From: Planctomycetota bacterium
Lineage (GTDB): Bacteria; Planctomycetota; JAJSAM01; JAJVHW01
Direction: 5' to 3'
Length of the DNA stretch: 64,000 bases
Assembly (NCBI GenBank): GCA_024280885.1
Contig: JAJRPF010000008.1
Location: 11,707 to 75,706, forward strand
Under the pieces are notes generated by a model. That model was not told the origin of the DNA. It worked only from the letters and a program-made list of their open reading frames with translations, and did not search any database. Position 1 is the stretch's first letter. The number at the start of each line of letters is the position of its first letter. Below are positions 1-63,345 of the stretch, one piece after another. A program made the position numbers and the translations under genes.

Positions 1-1739
1 CCGCCGTGGCGCAGCGACCAGATGTCCTTGAGCGCCCATGGAGCCCAGCCCTTCTTCTCGATGATCTCGGCGAAGATCCAGAGATCCTTCATCCGGTTCT
101 CGAGGGGCACCATCCAGGTGAACTTGCCGTTCTCTTCGGTGTGCGAAGAGAAGAACTCAGCGAAGCCCTCGGTACTCCATAGCGGGCGTGTGAGCGAGTC
201 GAGCCAGCGCGGTGGGCGGCCGATGATCTTGCGCGTTGTATCCCACGTATAGAAGTGCACGAGTTGGTGCGTCGCTTCGTGGCATTGCACCTGGTTCGTG
301 GACTCCTGGGACTCGCCTTCGCCGTCGGCGCCCTTCTCTCCATCGCCTTCGTACGTCGTGATGAAGCGCGGCTCCTGCTTGGAGTAGTACGCGCGCGCGC
401 TGCCGGGTCCACCGACCTGGCGGATGTACTCGTAGTAGGAATCGCTGTCGGCGAACACGTTGGCCTTCAGGATGGTCGCGTAGTCCACCGAGTCTTCGGT
501 GTAGCGCTCGAAGCCGAAGATCGGCGCGATCTGCGTCATCCAGCCTTCGTACATGTTCTTGAAGAGGTCGATGTTGCGGTCGAGGATCTTCTGCGCCGTC
601 GCGACGGCCTCGGGGTCCGCATCCTCGATGACGGTCCCCTTCTCGGACTTGATCTCTACGAAGAGAAGATAGGGCCCGACGTGTGCGCTGACTGTCGGGT
701 GATCCTTGAACACCTCGAGCGTGCGGCGGTACGCGATCCACCGCGCGCGGCCGAACGCGGCGTCGGAGTTCGCGAGCTCCTGCTCGCCTGCTTCGACCTC
801 GGCGAGCAGCTCGTTAATCTGCGCGAGCTCCTCGCCCTCGGCCCACCACTTCTTCTTCCCGTTGTCACCCGCGTGCTTCTTGATCAGGCGGCCGAGTTGG
901 ACGACCGACTCGAGTTGGACGTCGTCGGCGAGTTCGCACTTGCGCAGGACGCGGCGTGCCTTGGAGGAGACCTCCTCGCGGCCGAGGACCTGGTTCGCCC
1001 ACTCGCTGGTCGGCGTGCGCGCGACGTAGAGACGCGCCAGGCGCTCGAGGCCTTCGCGTTCGTCGCGGTCGCGGAGGAACGTCGCCGTCTCTTGGACGAT
1101 CGAGTCCGACTCGGTGTTGGCGCGTGCGACCATCATGTTGACGCGGTCGGCGCGGACGTTCGCGGCGAGCATGGTCCACGCGGCCGGGTCCTTGTCCGGG
1201 TCACCGCCGCCCGCGGCGACGCCGGTTCCGTCGGCGGCCGGGGACCCGCCGATAGTCGTCGCCGGGGGGAGCTCGTCGCCGCCCTTCATCATGAAGAAGG
1301 CGATCACCGCGACGACCAGAAGACCGCCGCCAGCGAGCATCGGGACGGGTAGGGTCTTCTTGTCGGTGCGGGGGGCGTCGTCGCCGCGTGTAGCGCGCTG
1401 CCTGCCCCGGCTGCGCCCGCGCGGTTCCGGCTCGGACTCGGGCGGTGGGGCCGCGCGGCGCGCGGCGGGTTTCGCCGTGCGACCGGCGCCTGCGCGGCGT
1501 CCGGTGGATGCCTGTGCGCCGCGCGCTGCTGCGGGGGGCGTCCGTTTCGCGGCGGGCCGCGCCGGGGATGTGCCCGGGGATCTGCGCTGCGCGGGGCGTG
1601 CGGCCTGAGCGGGCTGCGCGGGCGGGGCCGTCGGCACCTCCACGACATGCCCGCACTTGCTGCAGGTGAACGTCTCATACTGTGCGACGGCGGCCAGGGG
1701 GAACTGGCCTCCGCAGCCGGGGCAACGAACCGTGGACAT
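1..1739 (-). CDS. partial CDS (first 579 codons; continues past window start): MJ0042-type zinc ribbon + one TM helix + HExxH putative metallopeptidase domain (DUF1570/peptidase-MA-like)
   Basis: Manual minus-strand translation from ATG at 1737-1739. MSTVRCPGCGGQFPLAAVAQYETFTCSKCGHVVEV is a CxxC..CxxC ribbon; LLVVAVIAFFMM is hydrophobic. YYSKQEPRF...VQCHEATHQLVHFYTW aligns with the AGYYSPGE...LAHELTHHW segment of the paralogs at 12859-15738 and 25406-28294. Absent from the ORF track because it runs off the window edge. Confidence 0.7.
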   Translation of the reverse strand, partial: MSTVRCPGCGGQFPLAAVAQYETFTCSKCGHVVEVPTAPPAQPAQAARPAQRRSPGTSPARPAAKRTPPAAARGAQASTGRRAGAGRTAKPAARRAAPPPESEPEPRGRSRGRQRATRGDDAPRTDKKTLPVPMLAGGGLLVVAVIAFFMMKGGDELPPATTIGGSPAADGTGVAAGGGDPDKDPAAWTMLAANVRADRVNMMVARANTESDSIVQETATFLRDRDEREGLERLARLYVARTPTSEWANQVLGREEVSSKARRVLRKCELADDVQLESVVQLGRLIKKHAGDNGKKKWWAEGEELAQINELLAEVEAGEQELANSDAAFGRARWIAYRRTLEVFKDHPTVSAHVGPYLLFVEIKSEKGTVIEDADPEAVATAQKILDRNIDLFKNMYEGWMTQIAPIFGFERYTEDSVDYATILKANVFADSDSYYEYIRQVGGPGSARAYYSKQEPRFITTYEGDGEKGADGEGESQESTNQVQCHEATHQLVHFYTWDTTRKIIGRPPRWLDSLTRPLWSTEGFAEFFSSHTEENGKFTWMVPLENRMKDLWIFAEIIEKKGWAPWALKDIWSLRHG

Positions 1740-2597: not shown

Positions 2598-3079
2598 GCG
2601 ACCCGAGTAGCCCGCGAGACAAGATCAGTCTGCAAGCGCGCCTGGCGCCGAAGAGTGTGTGCTTCGGGTGCGGCCCCGCGAACGAGAAGGGGCTGCGGAT
2701 CGAGAGCTTCGTCGATGGCGAAGAGGTCGTCTGTGACTTCACCCCGGAGCCGCATCACCACGCGTTCCCCGGTGTTCTGAACGGCGGGATGGTCGGAACG
2801 TTGCTCGACTGTCATTGCAACTGGACGGCGGCGTATCACCTGATGGAGGCGGCGGGCGACGGGGAGTTGCCGAGCACCGTCACGGCCGAGTACACGATCA
2901 AGATGCTGCGCCCGACACCGATGGACGGCGTGTTGCATTTGCGCGCGCGCATTGTCGAGATGAAGGGCTCGCGGGCCGTCGTCGAAGGCGAGATCCACGC
3001 GGGTGGGAAGATCACGGCGACGTGTCGCGGGACGTTCGTCGCGGTGAAGACGGGCCATCCGGCGTATCACCGCTGGTAG
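2594..3079 (+). CDS. PaaI/4HBT-family hotdog thioesterase
   Basis: CFGCGPANEKGL and hotdog-fold length (161 aa). ATGA overlap with the upstream HAD gene suggests translational coupling. Confidence 0.8.
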   Translation: MSDPSSPRDKISLQARLAPKSVCFGCGPANEKGLRIESFVDGEEVVCDFTPEPHHHAFPGVLNGGMVGTLLDCHCNWTAAYHLMEAAGDGELPSTVTAEYTIKMLRPTPMDGVLHLRARIVEMKGSRAVVEGEIHAGGKITATCRGTFVAVKTGHPAYHRW

Positions 3080-3081
3080 AG

Positions 3082-3159
3082 GGTGAGAATACTGTGCCGG
3101 GCTCGTTTTTCTCAGGCGCGTCGAGGGGAGAAAAACGAGCCCGGCACGGTATTCTCACC
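3082..3159. repeat. long inverted repeat between convergent genes: 29-bp arms (one mismatch), 20-nt loop
   Basis: ggtgagaatactgtgccgggctcgttttt ... aaaaacgagcccggcacggtattctcacc. Lies exactly between the stop codons at 3079 (+) and 3172 (-). Arms are AT-richer than the surroundings. Confidence 0.6.
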
Positions 3160-3171
3160 AACAGACCGAGA

Positions 3172-4884
3172 TCACCGGATGTATGCGCGGATCACCTTGC
3201 CCGTTCTGTCCAGCAGCTTGACGCGCCCGTTCTGTGCCACGGCAACGCGCCCTCCGGCGACGTTGACGACGTTGCGCCATACGTTTCTCGCGTCGGGGAG
3301 TTCGACACGCGCTCCCGTTTCGATCTGCAGCAGTCCGGAGTCGGTGCGCACCCACGGGCCAAACCCGTTCGGCATCGCGAACGCTTGCTCGTCTCTGGCG
3401 AGTCTCGCCGTCGCGCGCGTTCCCACGATGGCGCCCGTCTCGCTGTTGACCGTGCTGTACGAGGCGGAGCCCTTCGCGAACTCGTAGACATGTACGAGGC
3501 CGGCGAGTTCGTCGAGGCGCCCCGTCGCCGTCCCGGTGACGGGGATGCTCAGGACGTCGTCGCCGGATTGCAGGTCGCGCAAACGGAGAGAGTCGTCGTC
3601 CGTCTGCTGGAACGCATGGTGCGGGCGCACCGAGAGCTTCGTCCCTGCTGGCACCTCCATCGATCGCCCGGCCCACTGAACGGACGTGTGGCTGCTACCG
3701 TCCTTTTCGCGGCCTGACCATGACGAGCCCCACCACGCGTCGTTCTGGCCGCGCCAGCCTGCGCGGTGTTTCTCCATGACCTGGCTCTCGGCGCTGAGCT
3801 GATCCCAGGAGCGGCTCTTCACCGACAGTCCGTCGGTCGGCTCGACCCAGCGCATCACTGCACGCTTCACGTCGTTGGCGTTGGAACCCGGCCAGCGAAA
3901 GAGATCGCACTCCCAGACGCGGAACGTCCCTGCGGCGGTCCACGCGGGTTCGGCCGGGATCACGTACGTACCGTCTACGACGTGCACTGCGCCCGACTCG
4001 ACGTTTACGATCCACACATGTGCCCGGCGTGCTCCAAACCGCTTCACATGCAAGGCGAGGTAGCGTCCGTCTGGCGACGGGTCGATCCGGTAGATATTCA
4101 CGTCCTCATCGCCGGGCACGAAGCTGGTGTGAGCTTCGACGGTCGCGATTGCCGCGGCCCCCGTCGGGACGCCGATGCAGATCGGGATCAGCAGCGCGAG
4201 GGCCCACTTCCTGACGAGCGAACGACTGTGGATGGGTCCGCGCGTGAAAGCGACGAGCGAACCGGCCAGAAGCAGCGCGCTGATGGTCGCCGGGACGGCG
4301 ACGAGGATCGTGTCGCCCGCGTCGATCCCGAGTGCCCAGAAGTCGATGCTCCACATCGCGAACGCCGGAGCTCCGACGGTGGCGACGCCCGCGACCGTTG
4401 CGGCGAATCCGCGGGGGAGGAGCGTGGAGAAGAAGAGGGCCGCGAACGCGGGGACGAGCGCGATGGGAGTTCGGGCGATCGCCTCGCCGCTTGCGCCTTG
4501 CATTGCCGTGTTGGCGGCGCCGCTGGCGCGCAGAGCGTAGAGCGCTGTTGTGACGGTCAACGCGTACACACCGAATGCGAGCGTCGCGACGACGAGGTGT
4601 GTGACCTTCGCGGCCCAGATCCGACCGAGGCCCGTCGGGAGACTTGCGAGAGCGTCCATCCGGCCGGTGGAGACATCGCTTGCCACCAGGTCAGAAGCGA
4701 TGAGCAGCCCGCAGAGCGCGGCTGCCGCCGTCCCGAACCAGCGCGCGGTCGATGCGCCGTACGTGTAGTGCCCGAAGAACTCCTCGTAGGCGATCAGGGC
4801 GAGGGGGGCGATCACGGCGAGCACGACGATGAGCGCGCGCGTGTCGCGGGCTTCTCTGCGGAGGAGGGGCAGGAAGGTCCGCAT
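3172..4884 (-). CDS. ABC-2-type permease fused to a C-terminal extracytoplasmic PD40/TolB-like beta-propeller domain
   Basis: N-terminal ~250 aa is a multi-TM region. C-terminal ~320 aa contains IYRIDPSPDGRYLALHV. Paralogous to the next gene. Confidence 0.7.
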   Translation of the reverse strand: MRTFLPLLRREARDTRALIVVLAVIAPLALIAYEEFFGHYTYGASTARWFGTAAAALCGLLIASDLVASDVSTGRMDALASLPTGLGRIWAAKVTHLVVATLAFGVYALTVTTALYALRASGAANTAMQGASGEAIARTPIALVPAFAALFFSTLLPRGFAATVAGVATVGAPAFAMWSIDFWALGIDAGDTILVAVPATISALLLAGSLVAFTRGPIHSRSLVRKWALALLIPICIGVPTGAAAIATVEAHTSFVPGDEDVNIYRIDPSPDGRYLALHVKRFGARRAHVWIVNVESGAVHVVDGTYVIPAEPAWTAAGTFRVWECDLFRWPGSNANDVKRAVMRWVEPTDGLSVKSRSWDQLSAESQVMEKHRAGWRGQNDAWWGSSWSGREKDGSSHTSVQWAGRSMEVPAGTKLSVRPHHAFQQTDDDSLRLRDLQSGDDVLSIPVTGTATGRLDELAGLVHVYEFAKGSASYSTVNSETGAIVGTRATARLARDEQAFAMPNGFGPWVRTDSGLLQIETGARVELPDARNVWRNVVNVAGGRVAVAQNGRVKLLDRTGKVIRAYIR

Positions 4885-7982: not shown

Positions 7983-8005
7983 CCACACGGTTAAGACCAA
8001 AACCC

Positions 8006-8109
8006 AGACCGGGTCGGCCTTGGGGCCTTATAGCCTCAAAATGCCGGGTTCGGATCCACGGCGGCGTTGGAGAGTTGAGGCTATAAGGCCCCAAGGCCGA
8101 CCCGGTCTG
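8006..8109. repeat. inverted pair of the 34-bp element AGACCGGGTCGGCCTTGGGGCCTTATAGCCTCAA forming a ~104-bp hairpin (MITE/REP-like)
   Basis: Direct copy at 8006-8039, inverted copy at 8075-8109, ~35-nt spacer. The same 34-mer recurs at 29217-29250 and 38005-38038. Confidence 0.7.
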
Positions 8110-8122
8110 TTACGTGGGGCTG

Positions 8123-10990
8123 CTACTTGGCGTTGTGTTCTAGGAGCTGGGTGAAGGTGCCGCCGCCCTGGTGGGCGAGGCGCTGGAGGAACGTCTCGTT
8201 CACTCCGAGATTGCCGTAAACGACGACGTAGATGCGGGCGCGGGCGTAGCGGTTGACCTCGGTGAACCAGCGCAGGAATTGCTCCGGCTCCACGACGTCG
8301 CCGATCGTCGGGCTGCCGTCCGTCAGGAGATGCACCGTGTCGGCGCTGTCCGGCAGTGACGGCGACGTCCACGTGCGCTCGCCGATCTCCAGTGCGGCGC
8401 CGAGCGCGCCGTGGAAGTTCGTCTCGCCCCATGGCGATCGGCTCCGCGCGAACGACGCTCCACCGCGCTTGTTGCCGGCGCTCGCCGGAACGAGTGCGTT
8501 CTTCCACGTCGCGACGTCGCTCGCGAAGGCGACGACGTTGAACACGGCGCGCGGGTCGAGTTGCTCGATCGCGTGCCGCAGCTCGATGCGCGACATCTCG
8601 GAGATTGTCGGATTGCCCGGCCCATAACTCCCGAGCAGACGCTCCTTCGTTCCGGGTGACGGGCTGAAGTTACGGTTCGTGCTGCGGCTCGTGTCGATCA
8701 CGAAGACGATGCGTTGCGAGAAGATGCGCTCGCCATAGACCGTCGGCGTGTTGTCGGGCGCGTAGCGCCCCGGTTCCTCGGGCTTCGGCTTCGGGCCCGT
8801 GATCGCGAAACCGCCGCGCTCGTTCGCCGAGCGCTCTTCCAGACGCCACCAGCCCTTCCACTTCTCGACGTCGTTGCCCATGTCCTCGCCGGAGAGGCGC
8901 CGCAGCGTGGCGAAGATCTCCTCGCGGACGCGCCCGCCCTCCTTCTCTGCGCGCTCGAGTAGTGGCGGGATGCTCTCGGGCGCGCCGATCTCCGCCAGTG
9001 TCTGCGCCGCTGCGATCCGCACTTGCCAGCGGGCGTGGGAGAGGTTCTTCGCGATGAGCGGAAGACACGTCGAATTCACTTCCTCACCGAACGCAGCGAG
9101 TGCGTCCATCGCGGCGATGCGCGTCTTGGGGGATGTGTCTTGAGAGAGCGCGCGGATCCCCGACTGCGCGTTGAAGTCGCGGAGTGCGGCCGAAGCCAGT
9201 GCCGACTCCGCGCGCACCAACCAGTGCGCGTCCTTGACCAGTGGGCGGAGCGCGTCCTTCGCGTTCGTGAGTCGCAGGAGTCGCACCGCCCGCGCCGCGT
9301 AGGCCCGCGAGAGCGGTCGCGCGGCCGACAGTCCGTGTTCCCAAATCGCGCGCCTGGCCGCTGCGTCCTCGACCTTCAGCAGTACGTCCAGGCCGGTCTC
9401 GCGAACACGATCGCTGCGAACGATCCCCACGAGATCGAGCAGAGCGGCGATCTCCAGCGGATCGGTGATCCTCCCCAGCGCGCGGATCCCCGCTTCGAGG
9501 TCGGCGGGGTCCATCATCGCGTTGAGCTTCCTGGCCGACGGTGTCTCGACGTCGGCCGCCTCGCTCGCGTCCTTCCCGAGGAGACGCGCAACCCACGCTT
9601 CGTGGAATGCCTCCGGGCTCATACCCAGATGATCCTCGAATGCCTCGCGCACGTCCCGTTCCTTGCGCAGATCCGCGAGTAGGTCAACCCACGGTTCGCG
9701 CCAGTCGTCCGACTCAAACGCCACGTCGAAGTAGCTCCAGCATTGGCGGCGCTCCTCGAGATTGAGGTGTCCGAGCGAGCTCGCTGCAAGCAGTTTCGCA
9801 ATCGGCGCGAGGTCTCCGCTACGCGCCCGGTTTTTCAACTTCTTACGCCAGTCCTTGCCGCTCCCCGAGATCTTCTGCTGTTCGCCGGTGCAGTAGTAGA
9901 CGACGTCACGGTGCTTCTCGACGCGCTTGTTGAACCAGTGCGCGATGCCGACGAACGCCCAGCGCGGCATCGTGCGGTTCTCGCCATTGCGTCCGATCCA
10001 GCACGTGATCATGACGTGCGCCATCAAGTGTCGCATCGCTCCGTGCAGCGCGTAGTCGTCGCCCGCGAGCGACCGCGCGGCCGCGGCCGACTGCTTCATG
10101 CGCTGCAACGGAACGCAGAAGCCGTTCAGGCAGAAGCCCTCGGAGATCGCGGAGTCACCGCGCCCCTGATACGAGCTGTAGATCATGTGGTTGCGCGAGT
10201 TGCGAAAGTACGACGCCTGCAACTTGCGGCCATCGGTCTCGCTCTTCGGTAGGTAGATGCCCATCGGGCGCAACAACTTCACGCGTCCGTTCATGACCTT
10301 GCCGAACTCGGTGTACGCCTGCTCGGCGCGTTGCACCATCAGGTGTGCATACTCGTGCGTCGTCGCGACGCGCACCTTCCCGGACTCGGACATCAGCTTG
10401 ATCTTGGGGATGTCCGTGACGACGTAGAAATGCCGCGAGTACGCCACCACCACGCGCTTCTCGTCGAACCATTGCTTCTCGATCGCGAGTTGCTTCTCCA
10501 TCGAAGAGCGCGCGTCCTGGCGCATGGCGTCCTTCTCGAAAGGGTCACCGTGGTCGCCGTCGCACCGCGGACAACTCGCACGCCCGGGGAACGGACAGCA
10601 CGTCGTGTTCGCGAGACACGCGCTGCAGTTGATCTTCCACGAGAGCGCGTGACGCTTGAGAAAGCACGCCATCCGATTGGACGCCATGCACGCCGCGTTG
10701 AAGCCCTTCGGTATCTCCCGCCCGGCGACGCAGAGCGCGCCCGACGCGCATTTCTCGCAGGGTCGTGGATCGTCGGGCGCCGCAACGGGCGCGTTCAGGA
10801 AGTGGTAGCAAGCCTGACGGTAGACGCAATGACAGCGCGCCTCGTCGGCGCCCGCCTCGTCGTCCTGCGCCGCGGCGCGGCGCCCGAACGGACCGATCAC
10901 GCACGCCGCCACCAGCAATGCAATCGCGAGAGCGCGCATCCATGCTCGTCGCTCGGAGATCGTCTGCGACATCATCTGCGATCCGTCCAT
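8123..10990 (-). CDS. secreted multidomain protein: Cys-rich module + HExxH metallopeptidase-like domain (DUF1570-like) + HEAT/PBS repeats + C-terminal von Willebrand factor A domain
   Basis: Start placed at MDGSQMM (residue 187 of the track ORF): GGGAGGAAGG 6 nt upstream, and further upstream would overlap gene 11070-12029. Signal peptide MRALAIALLVAACV. A ~12-Cys module follows. HExxH is ATTHEYAHLMVQ. HEAT-like repeats follow. vWA MIDAS motifs VFVIDTSRS...TNFHGAL...LLTDGSPT. Confidence 0.75.
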   Translation of the reverse strand: MDGSQMMSQTISERRAWMRALAIALLVAACVIGPFGRRAAAQDDEAGADEARCHCVYRQACYHFLNAPVAAPDDPRPCEKCASGALCVAGREIPKGFNAACMASNRMACFLKRHALSWKINCSACLANTTCCPFPGRASCPRCDGDHGDPFEKDAMRQDARSSMEKQLAIEKQWFDEKRVVVAYSRHFYVVTDIPKIKLMSESGKVRVATTHEYAHLMVQRAEQAYTEFGKVMNGRVKLLRPMGIYLPKSETDGRKLQASYFRNSRNHMIYSSYQGRGDSAISEGFCLNGFCVPLQRMKQSAAAARSLAGDDYALHGAMRHLMAHVMITCWIGRNGENRTMPRWAFVGIAHWFNKRVEKHRDVVYYCTGEQQKISGSGKDWRKKLKNRARSGDLAPIAKLLAASSLGHLNLEERRQCWSYFDVAFESDDWREPWVDLLADLRKERDVREAFEDHLGMSPEAFHEAWVARLLGKDASEAADVETPSARKLNAMMDPADLEAGIRALGRITDPLEIAALLDLVGIVRSDRVRETGLDVLLKVEDAAARRAIWEHGLSAARPLSRAYAARAVRLLRLTNAKDALRPLVKDAHWLVRAESALASAALRDFNAQSGIRALSQDTSPKTRIAAMDALAAFGEEVNSTCLPLIAKNLSHARWQVRIAAAQTLAEIGAPESIPPLLERAEKEGGRVREEIFATLRRLSGEDMGNDVEKWKGWWRLEERSANERGGFAITGPKPKPEEPGRYAPDNTPTVYGERIFSQRIVFVIDTSRSTNRNFSPSPGTKERLLGSYGPGNPTISEMSRIELRHAIEQLDPRAVFNVVAFASDVATWKNALVPASAGNKRGGASFARSRSPWGETNFHGALGAALEIGERTWTSPSLPDSADTVHLLTDGSPTIGDVVEPEQFLRWFTEVNRYARARIYVVVYGNLGVNETFLQRLAHQGGGTFTQLLEHNAK

Positions 10991-29216: not shown

Positions 29217-29250
29217 AGACCGGGTCGGCCTTGGGGCCTTATAGCCTCAA
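29217..29250. repeat. copy of the 34-bp MITE/REP-like element, 8 bp after the stop at 29209
   Basis: Identical 34-mer. A degenerate inverted partner (ACCGGGTCTG) lies ~40 bp downstream. Confidence 0.7.
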
Positions 29251-29393
29251 ACCCGCCCCCTTTCCCGACCATACCGGGTCTGTTTTCGCGCCTTTTGGCC
29301 TCGACTTCGGCCCGATAATGCGGATCTCGGGCGGGCGCCTCTCCAAGCTGCCGATCTATCCCGCCGATGGATACCGAGGAGAGGAACTGCCCC

Positions 29394-37978: not shown

Positions 37979-38004
37979 CCCGCCACACAATCCGATTCGA
38001 GCCG

Positions 38005-38038
38005 AGACCGGGTCGGCCTTGGGGCCTTATAGCCTCAA
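38005..38038. repeat. copy of the 34-bp MITE/REP-like element between convergent genes
   Basis: Identical 34-mer, 27 bp after the aminotransferase stop. Confidence 0.7.
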
Positions 38039-38099
38039 CTCGAGGACTCTCCGAGCCCTCGGGTCGGCACTCTGCGGGAAGCTCGATGGCGCGCTCGCC

Positions 38100-39167
38100 C
38101 TACTCGACGGGCAAACGCCGGAAGCCGTCGATCATCGTGCGGAACTCGGGTTCCCAGTCTTCGCGCGCGTTCGCCGCGACCATCGCCTGGAGCACCCAGT
38201 AGTTGCCGTCTTCCTCGAAGAGAACGAGCTGCAGGACGAACATCGCGTCGGATGTGCCCGCATGCGTCGCCGTCGTCGTGATCTCGACGGCTTCCAGACC
38301 GTCCACCCGCAGTTCCTTGACGGCCGAGTCACGCAGGTTGGTCATCTGCGCCGTCGCCGCGAGCCGACGCTTGGCGAAGTTCACGCGCTCGCCCGCTGCG
38401 ATCTTCGAGACCGACGGCGCCACGATCACCAGCGGCGCCCCGGGCTTGCTCTTCCCGAATGTCCCCGGCTCGCAATAGATCGTCCCGACGCGTGTGTGGT
38501 GCCCGATCTCCAGCCGCTTCGCCTTGCCGAGCGCGAAGCGCATCACGTCCGGGTGGCGCGTCTTCGAGATGGTGAGTTCGCGCAGGCATTTTTCCATTGG
38601 CGCGCGCAACGCGTCGGCGTCGGAGACCCGAAACGTCGCCGACATCAACGCCGTCCCATCAGGCACCGGAGCCACCAGGATGAAGCGCTCCATCTCGATG
38701 CCGCGCGCCTCCTGCATCACGCGCAGCAAGAGCGCCGTGCGCGCGCCGATCTTGATGTCCTCGCGCGATACAACCGTCATCCCGCGCGAAGCGAGCTTCT
38801 CGTCGTCTCGCATCCCCGAAACGGTCGCCTCGTAGGGCCCGGGCAACTCGTTCACCAGGATGGAAGCCGAGCGCTTCTCATCCCCGAAGCCCGAGTACCG
38901 TTCCGCCTTCACAAACCCCGCGGGCGGCACCAACGCCACGTGCGTCCCCGGCACGGGGATGCGCTTCGCTGCGATCGGCGGCTTCTGCGACGAGGGCGAC
39001 GGCGTCCCCGCGACCGGTGTGGGCGGTGCCGCCTCGTCCTGTGCCTGAGCGGACGGTGTGCCGACGAGCCCGAGCACTCCGACGAGGAGCGCAGCCCTCG
39101 CCGTCGCCAGCCAACCCTGCGCGAGCCGACCGGATCGGGAGTTCGAGTGTGTGGAGTAGGACCTCAT
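38100..39167 (-). CDS. secreted hypothetical protein
   Basis: Start MRSYSTHSNSRSGRLAQGWLATARAALLVGVLGLVGTPSAQA (residue 58 of the track ORF). Pro-rich linker. No SD seen. Confidence 0.55.
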   Translation of the reverse strand: MRSYSTHSNSRSGRLAQGWLATARAALLVGVLGLVGTPSAQAQDEAAPPTPVAGTPSPSSQKPPIAAKRIPVPGTHVALVPPAGFVKAERYSGFGDEKRSASILVNELPGPYEATVSGMRDDEKLASRGMTVVSREDIKIGARTALLLRVMQEARGIEMERFILVAPVPDGTALMSATFRVSDADALRAPMEKCLRELTISKTRHPDVMRFALGKAKRLEIGHHTRVGTIYCEPGTFGKSKPGAPLVIVAPSVSKIAAGERVNFAKRRLAATAQMTNLRDSAVKELRVDGLEAVEITTTATHAGTSDAMFVLQLVLFEEDGNYWVLQAMVAANAREDWEPEFRTMIDGFRRLPVE

Positions 39168-41322: not shown

Positions 41323-41706
41323 TCAGCCCTCGGAACGGGTCATGAGCCACCCGATACTACCGACCACGCCGACTAGCGGCAGAGAGGCGACACAGCACCA
41401 GAGCGTGCGCCGCAGGGCGTGAAATGGCTCGTCCCAATCGCGACTCCGGAACCACAGTTTCCAACTCGCGAGGATCGAGATCACGCACAGCACAGGTATC
41501 GACTGCATCCAGGTCCAGTACGCCGAGGTGGGGTCGCCCCACGCGCCCGGCACCGGGAAGTACGTCGCGTTCAAGATCGTCACGGGAACGGAGCCCGTGC
41601 CCAGTAGCACACACCCCACCGTGACGCATAACGGAACGGTGATCGGCTGGCGTTCAGGTGACAGGTCCACGGCGTACGATCGCCGATTGCGCTCCTCATA
41701 TGTCAT
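41323..41706 (-). CDS. small membrane protein (3 TM)
   Basis: Hydrophobic segments. Its start codon lies inside repeat R1. Confidence 0.4.
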   Translation of the reverse strand: MTYEERNRRSYAVDLSPERQPITVPLCVTVGCVLLGTGSVPVTILNATYFPVPGAWGDPTSAYWTWMQSIPVLCVISILASWKLWFRSRDWDEPFHALRRTLWCCVASLPLVGVVGSIGWLMTRSEG

Positions 41707-41926
41707 ACCGAGTCAGGCTCAATTCGTCGGATTGAACGCTCCGCACCTTGCCAGGCTCGTCGCCCTCCCGAGCGGAGTTCAACGCACGTTGCCCCGGCGA
41801 CGCTCGTCCGCGTGTAGAGTCCTGAGCGACGTTGAGAGGCGCAACGAGGTGGTCGACAGGCTGGCGACCCTGGTCGAGAGTGGAGAGTTGAGACCGCCGA
41901 AGCGAGCTTGGCACAGCATGCCGAGG
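41697..41926. repeat. dispersed repeat family copy R1 (~230 bp)
   Basis: Starts catatgtcataccgagtcaggctc, ends gttgagaccgccgaagcgagcttggcacagcatgccgag. Homologous over its length to R4 (47450-47700); the 5' ~60 bp also match R3 and R2. Confidence 0.6.
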
Positions 41927-45566: not shown

Positions 45567-45660
45567 GTCATGCCAAGCCAGGCTCGTCCGCCCGCTCCGC
45601 GAAGTGACCGTCGGAGCGCCCGAAGGTCCCACGCCATGAAGACGCCATCTACGAGACGCG
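45567..45660. repeat. dispersed repeat family copy R2 (partial, ~95 bp)
   Basis: gtcatgccaagccaggctcgtccgcccgctccgcgaagtgaccg...cccacgccatg aligns with the 5' part of R3. Confidence 0.5.
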
Positions 45661-46327: not shown

Positions 46328-46500
46328 CCATGTCATACCGAGCCAGACTCAACTCGTCGGTTTGGACACTCCGCTTCTCGTCAGGCTCGTCGGCCCGCTG
46401 CGCGAAGTGCCCGCTGGAAGCCGCGATCGTCCCGCACCATGACGACCCGTCTGGCGCGCCTCGCGCACGCCGGGTGACGCGGGCTACCCCGTGTGCTTTC
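46328..46500. repeat. dispersed repeat family copy R3 (~170 bp)
   Basis: ccatgtcataccgagccagactcaactcgtcgg...gtcaggctcgtcggcccgctgcgcgaagtgcccgctggaagccgcgatcgtcccgcaccatg. The 5' part matches R1; the central part matches R4. Confidence 0.6.
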
Positions 46501-47449: not shown

Positions 47450-47700
47450 CCATATCGAGTCAGGCTCGTCGGCTCGCTCCGCGAGGGCCCGCTGGAAGCC
47501 GCGACCGCCCCGCGCCATGGCAACGCGTCTCACGCGCCCTCGCGAGTGGCGTGCGACGCGTGTTGCCCCAGCGACCCCCGTCCACGAGTAGAGTCTTGGG
47601 CGCCGTCGCGAGCCGCGACGGCGCGGTTGACAGGCTGAGGAACTTGGTCGAAATTGGCGTGTTGAGACCGACGAATCGAGCCCGGCGCAGAATGCCGATG
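47450..47700. repeat. dispersed repeat family copy R4 (~250 bp), ending at the stop codon of 47703-48185
   Basis: ccatatcgagtcaggctcgtcgg...cccgctggaagccgcgaccgccccgcgccatgg...gttgacaggctgaggaacttggtcgaaattggcgtgttgagaccgacgaatcgagcccggcgcagaatgccgatg. Confidence 0.6.
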
Positions 47701-48185: not shown

Positions 48186-48453
48186 CGGGCTCCTCGTTGG
48201 TCGTGGCTCCGGTCCATCACATCGCGCGGGGCTCGATTCGGCAATTCGAGCGCTCTACTCTCGACCAGGCCTGTCGGCGAGTCAACCGCCTCGTCGCGGT
48301 TCGTCAATCGCGTCGAAGTGGCACCACCAATACGCGGCAGCCCGTCGTGAATGTCACCGCGACCGTGTGCGAGCCGTCTGCCGTCACGACGCACCAGCGC
48401 TCGACGCGACCGAGGCTCACGAACGGCTGGATGCTGACGCGCAGATCGCGGAG

Positions 48454-50475: not shown

Positions 50476-51012
50476 CTACTTCTTCTTGCGTGCAGTCTTC
50501 TTCGCAGCCTTCTTCTTCGCAGGCTTGCGTGTCGCCTTCTTAGCAGCCTTCTTCTTGGCAGGCTTGCGCGTTGCCTTCTTGGCTGCCTTCTTCTTGGCGG
50601 GCTTGCGCGTCGCCTTCTTAGCAGCCTTCTTCTTGGCAGGCTTACGCGTTGCCTTCTTGGCTGCCTTCTTCTTCTTGGCGGGCTTACGCGTCGCCTTCTT
50701 AGCGGCCTTCTTCTTGGCAGGCTTGCGCGTTGCCTTCTTGGCTGCCTTCTTCTTGGCGGGCTTGCGCGTCGCCTTCTTAGCAGCCTTCTTCTTGGCAGGC
50801 TTGCGCGTTGCCTTCTTGGCTGCCTTCTTCTTCTTGGCGGGCTTACGCGTCGCCTTCTTAGCAGCCTTCTTCTTGGCAGGCTTGCGCGTTGCCTTCTTGG
50901 CTGCTTTCTTCTTCTTGGCGGGCTTGCGCGTCGCCTTCTTCGCAGCCTTCTTCTTAGCCGGCTTGCGGGTCGCCTTCTTGGCGGCCTTCTTTGCTGCCTT
51001 CTTCGCGGCCAT
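50476..51012 (-). CDS. histone H1-like / AlgP-like Lys-Ala tandem-repeat DNA-binding protein
   Basis: About 12 tandem KKATRKPAKKK(K)AA units with 39/42-bp DNA periodicity. AGGAGG 6 nt upstream of the ATG. Confidence 0.8.
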   Translation of the reverse strand: MAAKKAAKKAAKKATRKPAKKKAAKKATRKPAKKKKAAKKATRKPAKKKAAKKATRKPAKKKKAAKKATRKPAKKKAAKKATRKPAKKKAAKKATRKPAKKKAAKKATRKPAKKKKAAKKATRKPAKKKAAKKATRKPAKKKAAKKATRKPAKKKAAKKATRKPAKKKAAKKTARKKK

Positions 51013-62663: not shown

Positions 62664-63345
62664 GCTGTGTTGTGTTTGTGCCGACTCCGTCGGCACCCCT
62701 CACTTCGTTCGGGTGTTCGGCTTCGGTCGCGGCTCCGGCTGCTTCAACCGGGTCTGCGCTCGGAGTTCGTTGCCGCGCCTCGGGCCGTGACCACGCCGCG
62801 TGAGTTCGCGCGTCGCGAGGTCGGGTTTCGCAGGCGGAATCCGCTCCCTGCGCCTCACTGCGATGCTGTGTTGCGTTTGTGCCGACTCCGTCGTCACGCT
62901 CGCTCTCGCTCGCATGTTCGGCTCCCGTCGCGGCTCCGACTGCTTCAACCGGGGCTGCGATCGGAGTTCGTTGCCGCGCCTCGGGCCGTGACCACGTCGT
63001 GTGAGTTCGCGCGTCGCGAGATCGGGTTTCGCAGGCGGAATCCGCTCCCTGCGCCTCACTGCGATTGTCACGCTGAGTGCTGCGCACACAGCCCGCCAAT
63101 CGCTTTGTTGTGTTGGTGCCGACTCCGTCGTCACGCTCGCTCTCGCTCGCATGTTCGGCTCCCGTCGCGGCTCCGACTGCTTCAACCGGGGCTGCGATCG
63201 GATGTCGTTGCCTCGCCTCGGGCGGTGACCACGTCGTGTGAGTTCGCGCGTCGCGAGATCGGGTTTCGCAGGCGGAATCCGCTCCCTGCGCCTCACTGCG
63301 ATTGTCACGCTGAGTGCTGCGCACACAGCCCGCCAATCGCTTTCG
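62664..63345. repeat. three-copy tandem array of a 201/237-bp unit immediately downstream of the atp operon
   Basis: Unit anchor gccgactccgtcg at about 62680, 62881 and 63118 (periods 201 and 237 bp). The 3' ~150 bp of each unit are near-identical. Confidence 0.8.

Follow-up and report, generated by a model that had tools for sequence, protein, structure and literature searches.

RAYT-like genes flanked by terminal inverted repeats (TIRs) have been described as TIRtrons and their enzymes as TIRYTs (Di Nocera et al., 2013, PMC3733652). Many of these TIRs carry the motif GGGGWSAS, and some constitute dispersed families whose members occur alone, as dimers, or in groups (PMC3733652). Quentin et al. 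(2018, PMC6006769) assigned most TIRYTs to TnpA_Y1 subclass 2.1, of which subgroup 2.1.2 has a Bac_DnaA_C-like C-terminus, and remarked that the head of the TIRs does not look like a DnaA box. In the literature that we searched, TIRYT/TIRtron systems are rarely named and biochemical tests are absent; none of the works naming TIRYTs reports a test of their activity on TIRs.

Related systems are the REP/REPIN-RAYT systems, such as Escherichia coli TnpA_REP (4er8) and the REPINs of Pseudomonas fluorescens. There, short extragenic repeats correspond to the flanks of a single-copy, vertically inherited Y1 gene, inverted doublets form long hairpins, and more than one repeat population can occur per genome. 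A fixed gene position with co-diverging repeats has been described for these systems too. Known IS200/IS605 elements, such as IS608 and ISDra2, lack TIRs and instead end in asymmetric subterminal hairpins on one strand; an HTH domain is missing from their transposases.

Here, we analyzed a stretch of 64,000 nucleotides from an uncultured planctomycetotal genome (referred to as the window), which contains a conspicuous 34-nt intergenic repeat. We consider this 34-mer, with a probability of about 80%, to be the TIR of a system of the TIRYT/TIRtron class (TnpA_Y1 subclass 2.1), the copies in the window being dispersed non-autonomous derivatives. The repeat family is new in a known, little-studied class. 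This reading would explain the repeat and is a warning for annotators, as such repeats break assemblies, as seen for the related contig L090, which terminates within a copy, and coincide with a break in synteny in at least one case. The lineage also offers a clean case in which the TIRs of a fixed syntenic gene diverge together with that gene over a range of 92 to 45% protein identity, and in which two repeat variants coexist in one genome, one replacing the other at a single site.

Repeat copies lie behind stop codons

Exact copies of the 34-mer AGACCGGGTCGGCCTTGGGGCCTTATAGCCTCAA, hereafter called A-type, were found at positions 8006-8039 (+), 8075-8108 (-), 29217-29250 (+), and 38005-38038 (+), precisely where a preliminary description of this DNA had placed them. 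No further copy exists in the window at up to three mismatches, and 100 dinucleotide-preserving shuffles of the window gave no match. Using nhmmer with a TIR profile derived from related repeats, we detected exactly five copies in the window, i.e., the four A-type copies and a variant at 29271-29305, and no fossil copies besides these, corresponding to a density of five copies per 64 kb. The wide spacing of the copies and the inverted orientation of one of them rule out a CRISPR or another tandem array. As described before, the repeat contains a strikingly AT-rich portion, since its tail TTATAGCCTCAA has a G+C content of only 33%; the overall value, however, is 66.7% for the window and not ~69% as had been assumed. 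Every A-type copy is intergenic and located 7-26 nt past a stop codon, in line with the earlier view that the copies follow stop codons or separate convergent genes.

The copies at 8006-8039 (nhmmer E = 3e-8) and 8075-8108 (E = 1.9e-8) form an inverted pair with the head AGACC pointing outward and the tail CCTCAA pointing inward. As C8005 pairs with G8109, the arms 8005-8039 and 8075-8109 are 100% complementary over 35 nt, and the hairpin previously put at ~104 bp is thus perfect in its arms. The 35 nt between them (8040-8074), read from the sequence and its predicted fold, represent the loop region. The pair starts 14 nt past the stop codon (8123-8125, minus strand) of a gene encoding a 1141-aa HEAT/VWA protein and lies 83 nt upstream of the start (7922) of a GntR gene, both genes being encoded on the minus strand.

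The solo A-type copy at 29217-29250 is located 7 nt past the stop codon of a glyoxalase-family gene and is followed in direct orientation by the variant ATACCGGGTCTGTTTTCGCGCCTTTTGGCCTCGAC (29271-29305, +; E = 4.8e-8), which is unique in the window and which we call B-type. The two copies start 54 nt apart and match at 72% in register. The preliminary description had merged them into a ~65-bp MITE-like unit with degenerate inverted termini (cagaccgggtc ... accgggtctg). Both strings are present, but the second is the head of the B-type copy in direct orientation and not an inverted terminus. This locus therefore contains two different repeat variants, each of which is conserved in relatives, rather than one unit. 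The other solo copy has a tail extended by CTC (38005-38041, +), is identical to the 8072-8108 arm over 37 nt, and is situated between convergent aminotransferase and PsbP-like genes, 26 nt past the stop codon of the former and 61 nt from that of the latter.

A Y1 transposase gene is flanked by the repeat

The window does not encode a transposase, as tblastn matched only the translated repeats themselves. Using a 20-mer of the repeat as query, we scanned metagenome contigs and obtained matches on two contigs of sample Ga0256847. One of them, L001, carries two 34-mers in inverted orientation, at 1656-1689 (+) and 2786-2819 (-, one mismatch), with a 1.1-kb ORF between them. The encoded protein of ~350 aa matches the Pfam family Y1_Tnp with 32.5 bits (cut-off 23) and Bac_DnaA_C below threshold. 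Its HUH motif (H61, H63) and Y120-x3-NP motif (N124, P125) are invariant among 51 homologues, several of which are named "REP element-mobilizing transposase RayT" at JGI. Thus, the earlier label of a "MITE/REP-like family" was right in kind, in that this dispersed non-coding sequence is the one that borders a RAYT-like Y1 gene on both sides in inverted orientation. The motif is also present on L002 and L005 and is intergenic on all three contigs, and so is not restricted to the window.

An AlphaFold2 model of the L001 enzyme (pLDDT 89.9) was compared with known structures using Foldseek. The closest match was E. coli TnpA_REP in complex with a REP hairpin (4er8, E = 6.5e-6, TM 0.70), followed by TnpA of IS608/ISDra2, with which the enzyme shares the catalytic fold and the HUH/Y motifs. 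The C-terminus matches DnaA DNA-binding domains both by fold (3pvp_B, TM 0.65) and by profile (1j1v, E = 0.0096), and the related Pfam domain PF08299 is precomputed on homologues P0003 and P0009. In addition, an NCBI protein encoded on a 46-kb contig is 92% identical to the L001 enzyme. This protein is probably the window genome's own TIRYT copy, to which its degree of divergence fits, and close relatives likewise suggest that the genome carries a TIRYT gene.

The flanked gene keeps one syntenic position

We identified six orthologues of the L001 enzyme on contigs L091, L088, L004, L003, L087, and L089, with identities of 59, 55, 50, 47, 45, and 38%, respectively. In each case, flanking TIRs of 35-46 nt represent the top-ranked inverted repeat. 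The five orthologues with 45-59% identity share the gapless layout xxACCGGG(TC)+8+8+(A/G)GCCTC, for which L091 needs one extra base. The A-type TIR of the window consists of the head CAGACCGGGTC, units 1 and 2 GGCCTTGG and GGCCTTAT, and the tail AGCCTCAA. In the same order, the TIRs read AAGACCGGGTC, TGCCTACAT, TGCCTTCC, AGGCTCAA on L091; CAGACCGGGTC, ATGTTTCG, CGCGTTCC, AGCCTCGG on L088; CGGACCGGGTC, TAACTAGC, TAACTCCC, AGCCTCGA on L004; GAGACCGGGAG, GGCTTAAC, CGCTTTTT, GGCCTCGG on L003; and CGTACCGGGTC, TTAGTTCG, CAACTTCC, AGCCTCAA on L087. The B-type TIR of the window has the corresponding elements CATACCGGGTC, TGTTTTCG, CGCCTTTT, and GGCCTCGA. At 38% identity, L089 still has a related head, GCCGGGCG, followed by the 8-nt units TAACTAAG and TAACTACA and the tail CCCCTC.

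An esterase gene adjoins the TIRYT gene in five of the six orthologues and on L001, and the other neighbor is a glycogen synthase gene in two of these orthologues. This shared neighborhood shows that the gene holds one chromosomal position (L001, L091, L088, L004, L003, and L087) while the TIRs diverge with it, as in REPIN-RAYT systems. On L089, the right-arm TIR is present twice in the right flank of the TIRYT gene (4021-4066 and 4085-4123), both copies being oriented alike, so that TIRs also cluster beside the gene itself.

Distant homologues connect the repeat to published TIRtrons

A scan of species-representative genomes yielded 79 distant homologue loci with 27-36% identity in named genomes. 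The flanking inverted-repeat score was at least 17 in 66 of these loci, compared with at most 15 in shuffles, and nearly all of the 66 have the outer end GGGGACG, which agrees with the published consensus GGGGWSAS. The head of the window TIR, CGGGTCGG, matches this consensus at 6 of 8 positions when the heads are aligned by eye. Extra TIR copies were found nearby at 11 of 67 distant loci and include heads-outward pairs 75-140 bp apart. The dispersal in the window is comparable to that described for TIRtrons, as the window contains a dimer, two single copies, and an A+B group, and more copies are present on L002 and L005.

Further shared features are the RAYT-like HUH/Y1 protein with extra length and a C-terminal HTH, which in this class is of the Bac_DnaA_C, HTH_23, or HTH_28 type, and the non-palindromic flanking TIRs, the right one of which often extends into the 3' end of the coding sequence. 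The system described here deviates from published TIRtrons in its extended and altered head, (C)AGACCGGGTC, and in the tail (A/G)GCCTC conserved in the subfamily. It also differs in its host, an uncultured lineage with 67% G+C which is absent from the GTDB species representatives searched, and in having one syntenic gene, whereas some distant relatives have at least five copies per genome. Between three and at least five TIRYT copies per genome were seen in MAG MFD02416.bin.2.25 (L012, L013, L017, L019, L022) and in a Smithellaceae MAG (L041, L043, L067). Wherever the flanking repeat scored well in these multi-copy MAGs, the TIRs were identical or near-identical, reminiscent of IS behavior.

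TIRs contain direct subrepeats in 8-bp phase

Comparison of the TIRs revealed a family-wide architecture consisting of a GGG(A/T)C(G/A) head, ~3 nt, and two direct subrepeats in 8-bp phase. We found it in the left TIRs of L008-L091 (e.g., L009 9903-9929 and L080 1558-1585) and in the window (8016-8039). The sequences of the units are lineage-specific, for example TTAACTTA/TTAACTT, ATAAGAT/TATAAGT, GTCAAGAT/GTCAAGTT, and GTAACTAA/GTAACTAC; in the window, the subrepeats GGCCTTGG/GGCCTTAT are followed by AGCCTCAA. Eight was the best tandem period in 52 of 67 TIRs and, after clustering by sequence, in 26 of 29 TIR clusters, compared with 12.7% of segments drawn at random from these loci (for the 29 clusters, p is about 4e-22 under a null of 1/9). 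The architecture itself is solid. No mention of 8-bp-phased subrepeats was found by text search in PMC3733652 or in the other literature searched.

Like the TIRs, replication origins contain short, phased direct repeats, and the C-terminus of the enzyme matches DnaA domain IV. The ~8-bp subrepeats, however, vary between lineages, and none of them resembles the DnaA box TTATNCACA. A tentative interpretation, which we hold to be possible but somewhat doubtful, is that TIRYTs read double-stranded ends, their DnaA-domain-IV-like HTH contacting the 8-bp-phased subrepeats (two in general, three here), whereas IS200/IS605 and RAYT enzymes recognize single-strand hairpins. The subrepeats would then serve as a lineage "address" by which each transposase stays paired with its own repeat population, for instance A-type or B-type. 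In a crude test of co-variation between the TIR body and protein domains, the partial correlation was 0.14 with the C-terminal, 0.07 with the N-terminal, and 0.10 with the middle part of the protein, values that do not discriminate between the domains. The phased subrepeats suggest how a DnaA-like domain could provide an HUH transposase with end specificity, and their architecture is the part of this work most worth following up.

The left TIRs of many A+T-rich relatives have TTGACA or TTGAC directly behind their second subrepeat (e.g., L045 9917-9965, L062 9921-9965, and L012 9926-9960), which could be the -35 box of the transposase gene.

Repeat turnover among close relatives

The sample that contains L001 also holds L006, which is ~93% identical to the window at the nucleotide level. 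Contigs from Ga0256847 and from ENA sample ERZ27262698 are orthologous to the window with ~93% nucleotide identity over 2-4 kb, and orthologues of window proteins encoded on the ERZ27262698 contigs show 94-98% amino-acid identity. L005 and L006 encode the same 344-aa protein, P0064, which is 94% identical to that of the window. Exact 20-mer scans of GTDB representative genomes and of viral contigs as well as blastn against plasmids gave no match; the lineage is not included in those sets.

At the site orthologous to the 29217 copy, L005 carries an A-type repeat that differs by two substitutions, in keeping with long vertical inheritance of this copy; L006 shows one of the two before the contig ends inside the repeat. 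The neighboring B-type copy (29271-29305) is identical in L005 and L006, so that these relatives share the A and the B copy of this locus with the window. Further B-type occurrences were detected on L002 and, as a pair, on L090. At non-orthologous sites in a relative (the left TIR of L001 and a copy on L002), the A-type repeats are identical to those of the window at 34 of 34 positions despite ~7% genome divergence, which suggests that the copies derive from a conserved master sequence.

The L090 pair occupies the GntR site. Where the window has a perfect A-type pair (8005-8109), L090 (1-85) has an imperfect B-type pair around an unrelated 34-nt spacer before the contig ends inside the repeat. 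The GntR-side flank is 100% identical up to ...CCAAAACCC, i.e., up to the same boundary. Thus, one element has taken the place of another here, with the outer boundary kept. Such an exchange would be in line with an HUH-type mechanism that is site-specific, makes no duplications, and re-uses its target, but gene conversion could also have produced the A/B difference.

The 38005 site (window 37979-38100) was compared with L092 (3106-3241). The two sequences are similar only as far as the stop codon of the aminotransferase gene, and a different gene follows downstream, which places this repeat at a synteny break; a clean empty site could not be defined in L092. Overall, we saw neither a transposition intermediate nor a clean empty site. 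Target-site duplications, which the preliminary description had proposed to look for, are absent from the ends of the pair (...AAAACCC / GTTACGT...), from the L001 unit, and from the flanks of all eight copies.

Alternative origins of the repeat

The main alternative is that the repeat represents a classical REP/REPIN, i.e., an imperfectly palindromic unit of 20-40 nt whose single-strand hairpin, together with a conserved 5' tetranucleotide, is recognized and cut by a short RAYT, as by E. coli TnpA_REP. The enzyme's closest solved structure is TnpA_REP bound to its REP hairpin, the arrangement of inverted copies around the gene resembles a REPtron, the gene looks single-copy and occupies one syntenic position across orthologues, and the window features both an inverted doublet and a second repeat population. 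The repeat units, however, are non-palindromic. Self-folding of single units gave minimum free energies of -5.1 and -5.2 kcal/mol, whereas their shuffled versions averaged -4.2 and -3.9 kcal/mol (z = -0.65 and -0.91, respectively), and across the subfamily z ranged from -0.91 to +1.54. Direct reading of the 34-mer also revealed neither a GTAG nor a CGTC tag. Lacking both the tags and any folding advantage over shuffles, these repeats are not classical REPs. Moreover, the protein of ~350 aa is about twice as long as the 165-aa chain of the solved E. coli TnpA_REP and has an additional DnaA-like HTH, and the literature sets exactly such cases apart as TIRYT/TIRtron (PMC3733652; PMC6006769). We therefore regard a classical REP/REPIN as improbable.

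A second alternative, which we consider very improbable, is a host-selected element, such as a terminator, an mRNA-stabilizing hairpin, or a protein operator, that was copied for its function without a transposase. The position of all copies 7-26 nt past stop codons would suit such a role, and REPs are known to affect mRNA stability in other bacteria. In addition, the region around the pair (7995-8120) folds as RNA with -92.1 kcal/mol (z = -11.2 compared with shuffles), and on the minus strand the hairpin precedes GGGTTTTGG; of this structure, a terminator scan flagged only small sub-hairpins next to GGGTTTTGG. The solo copies, however, have neither a hairpin nor a T-run in their tails. Searching the window against Rfam 15 gave no hit at the gathering score, and a permissive search returned only eukaryotic miRNA-precursor models with 18-44 bits, compared with thresholds of 70-100. 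That the repeat has the sequence of transposase-gene TIRs is by itself a direct explanation for its multiple copies, and the GntR site has a different variant in a relative despite identical flanks. The pair hairpin, located just past a gene end, may nevertheless attenuate transcription or protect the upstream mRNA, which we predict to be a side effect of the pair and not its origin.

A MITE derived from a DDE-type IS by cut-and-paste with target-site duplication, which the intergenic 105-bp unit with its perfect 35-bp terminal inverted repeats resembles, is regarded as highly improbable, since neither the pair nor the L001 unit is bordered by direct duplications and the genes found between such TIRs are exclusively of the Y1/HUH type (7/7 close loci and most of the 79 distant ones), with no match to the repeat in plasmid or viral collections.

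Together, the non-palindromic unit and the lack of target duplication are compatible neither with a classical REP nor with a DDE-type MITE, and the TIRYT/TIRtron assignment accounts for the repeat best. The lack of target-site duplication is shared with IS200/IS605 elements, from whose chemistry a precise re-use of sites is expected as well.

Proposed mechanism of repeat dispersal

In our model, the TIRtron would consist of a chromosomal RAYT-like HUH/Y1 gene, whose product has a DnaA-domain-IV-like C-terminal HTH, flanked by inverted TIRs of 34-38 nt. The window would harbor its derivatives, namely one MITE/REPIN-like heads-outward pair, two solo A-type copies, and one older or sister B-type copy. 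The transposase, encoded by a single-copy gene elsewhere in the genome, is predicted to recognize these TIRs in trans and to cut them by HUH/tyrosine chemistry at the conserved outer head (C)AGACCGGGTCG (head string ACCGGGTC), a variant of GGGGWSAS/GGGACG. Pairs and single units would be moved or copied into intergenic sites without target duplication, and sites already holding a repeat would be re-used. More speculatively, the subrepeats GGCCTTGG|GGCCTTAT|AGCCTCAA may be binding sites of the DnaA-like HTH that position the catalytic domain.

The heads-outward geometry of the pair is the same as that of the TIRs flanking the L001 transposase gene. We considered whether the pair is an internal deletion of an L001-type unit but found no support for this origin, as the best alignment of the pair spacer with the inner flanks of the L001 unit was matched by 189 of 2000 shuffles and is thus non-significant. 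The spacer of the L090 B-type pair likewise shows no significant similarity to the window spacer or to the L001 inner flanks.

Other repeats in the window

The window contains several repeated structures besides the TIR copies. A hairpin with 32-nt arms that are 97% complementary and a 14-nt loop, GGTGAGAATACTGTGCCGGGCTCGTTTTTCTC ... GAGAAAAACGAGCCCGGCACGGTATTCTCACC, is located at 3082-3159, where two convergent ORFs have their ends at 3079 and 3172 on either side of it. It resembles a bidirectional terminator and is unrelated to the 34-mer. At 50476-51012, the minus strand encodes a 178-aa Lys/Ala-rich histone-H1-like protein with ~13 copies of AAKKATRKPAKKK, and the corresponding tandem repeat (50497-50991) comprises 12.5 copies of a 39-nt unit with 85% matches. 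A longer tandem repeat at 62664-63343 is built from units of 201/237 nt in two to three copies that are 91-97% identical. Finally, several segments of 55-80 nt are repeated between 41.7 and 48.3 kb in direct and inverted orientation with 62-92% identity: 41700-41778 corresponds to 46330-46408; 45577-45657 to 46380-46460 and 47459-47538; and 47609-47688 to 48224-48303. These segments resemble leader regions or 5' ends of genes in a paralogous cluster.
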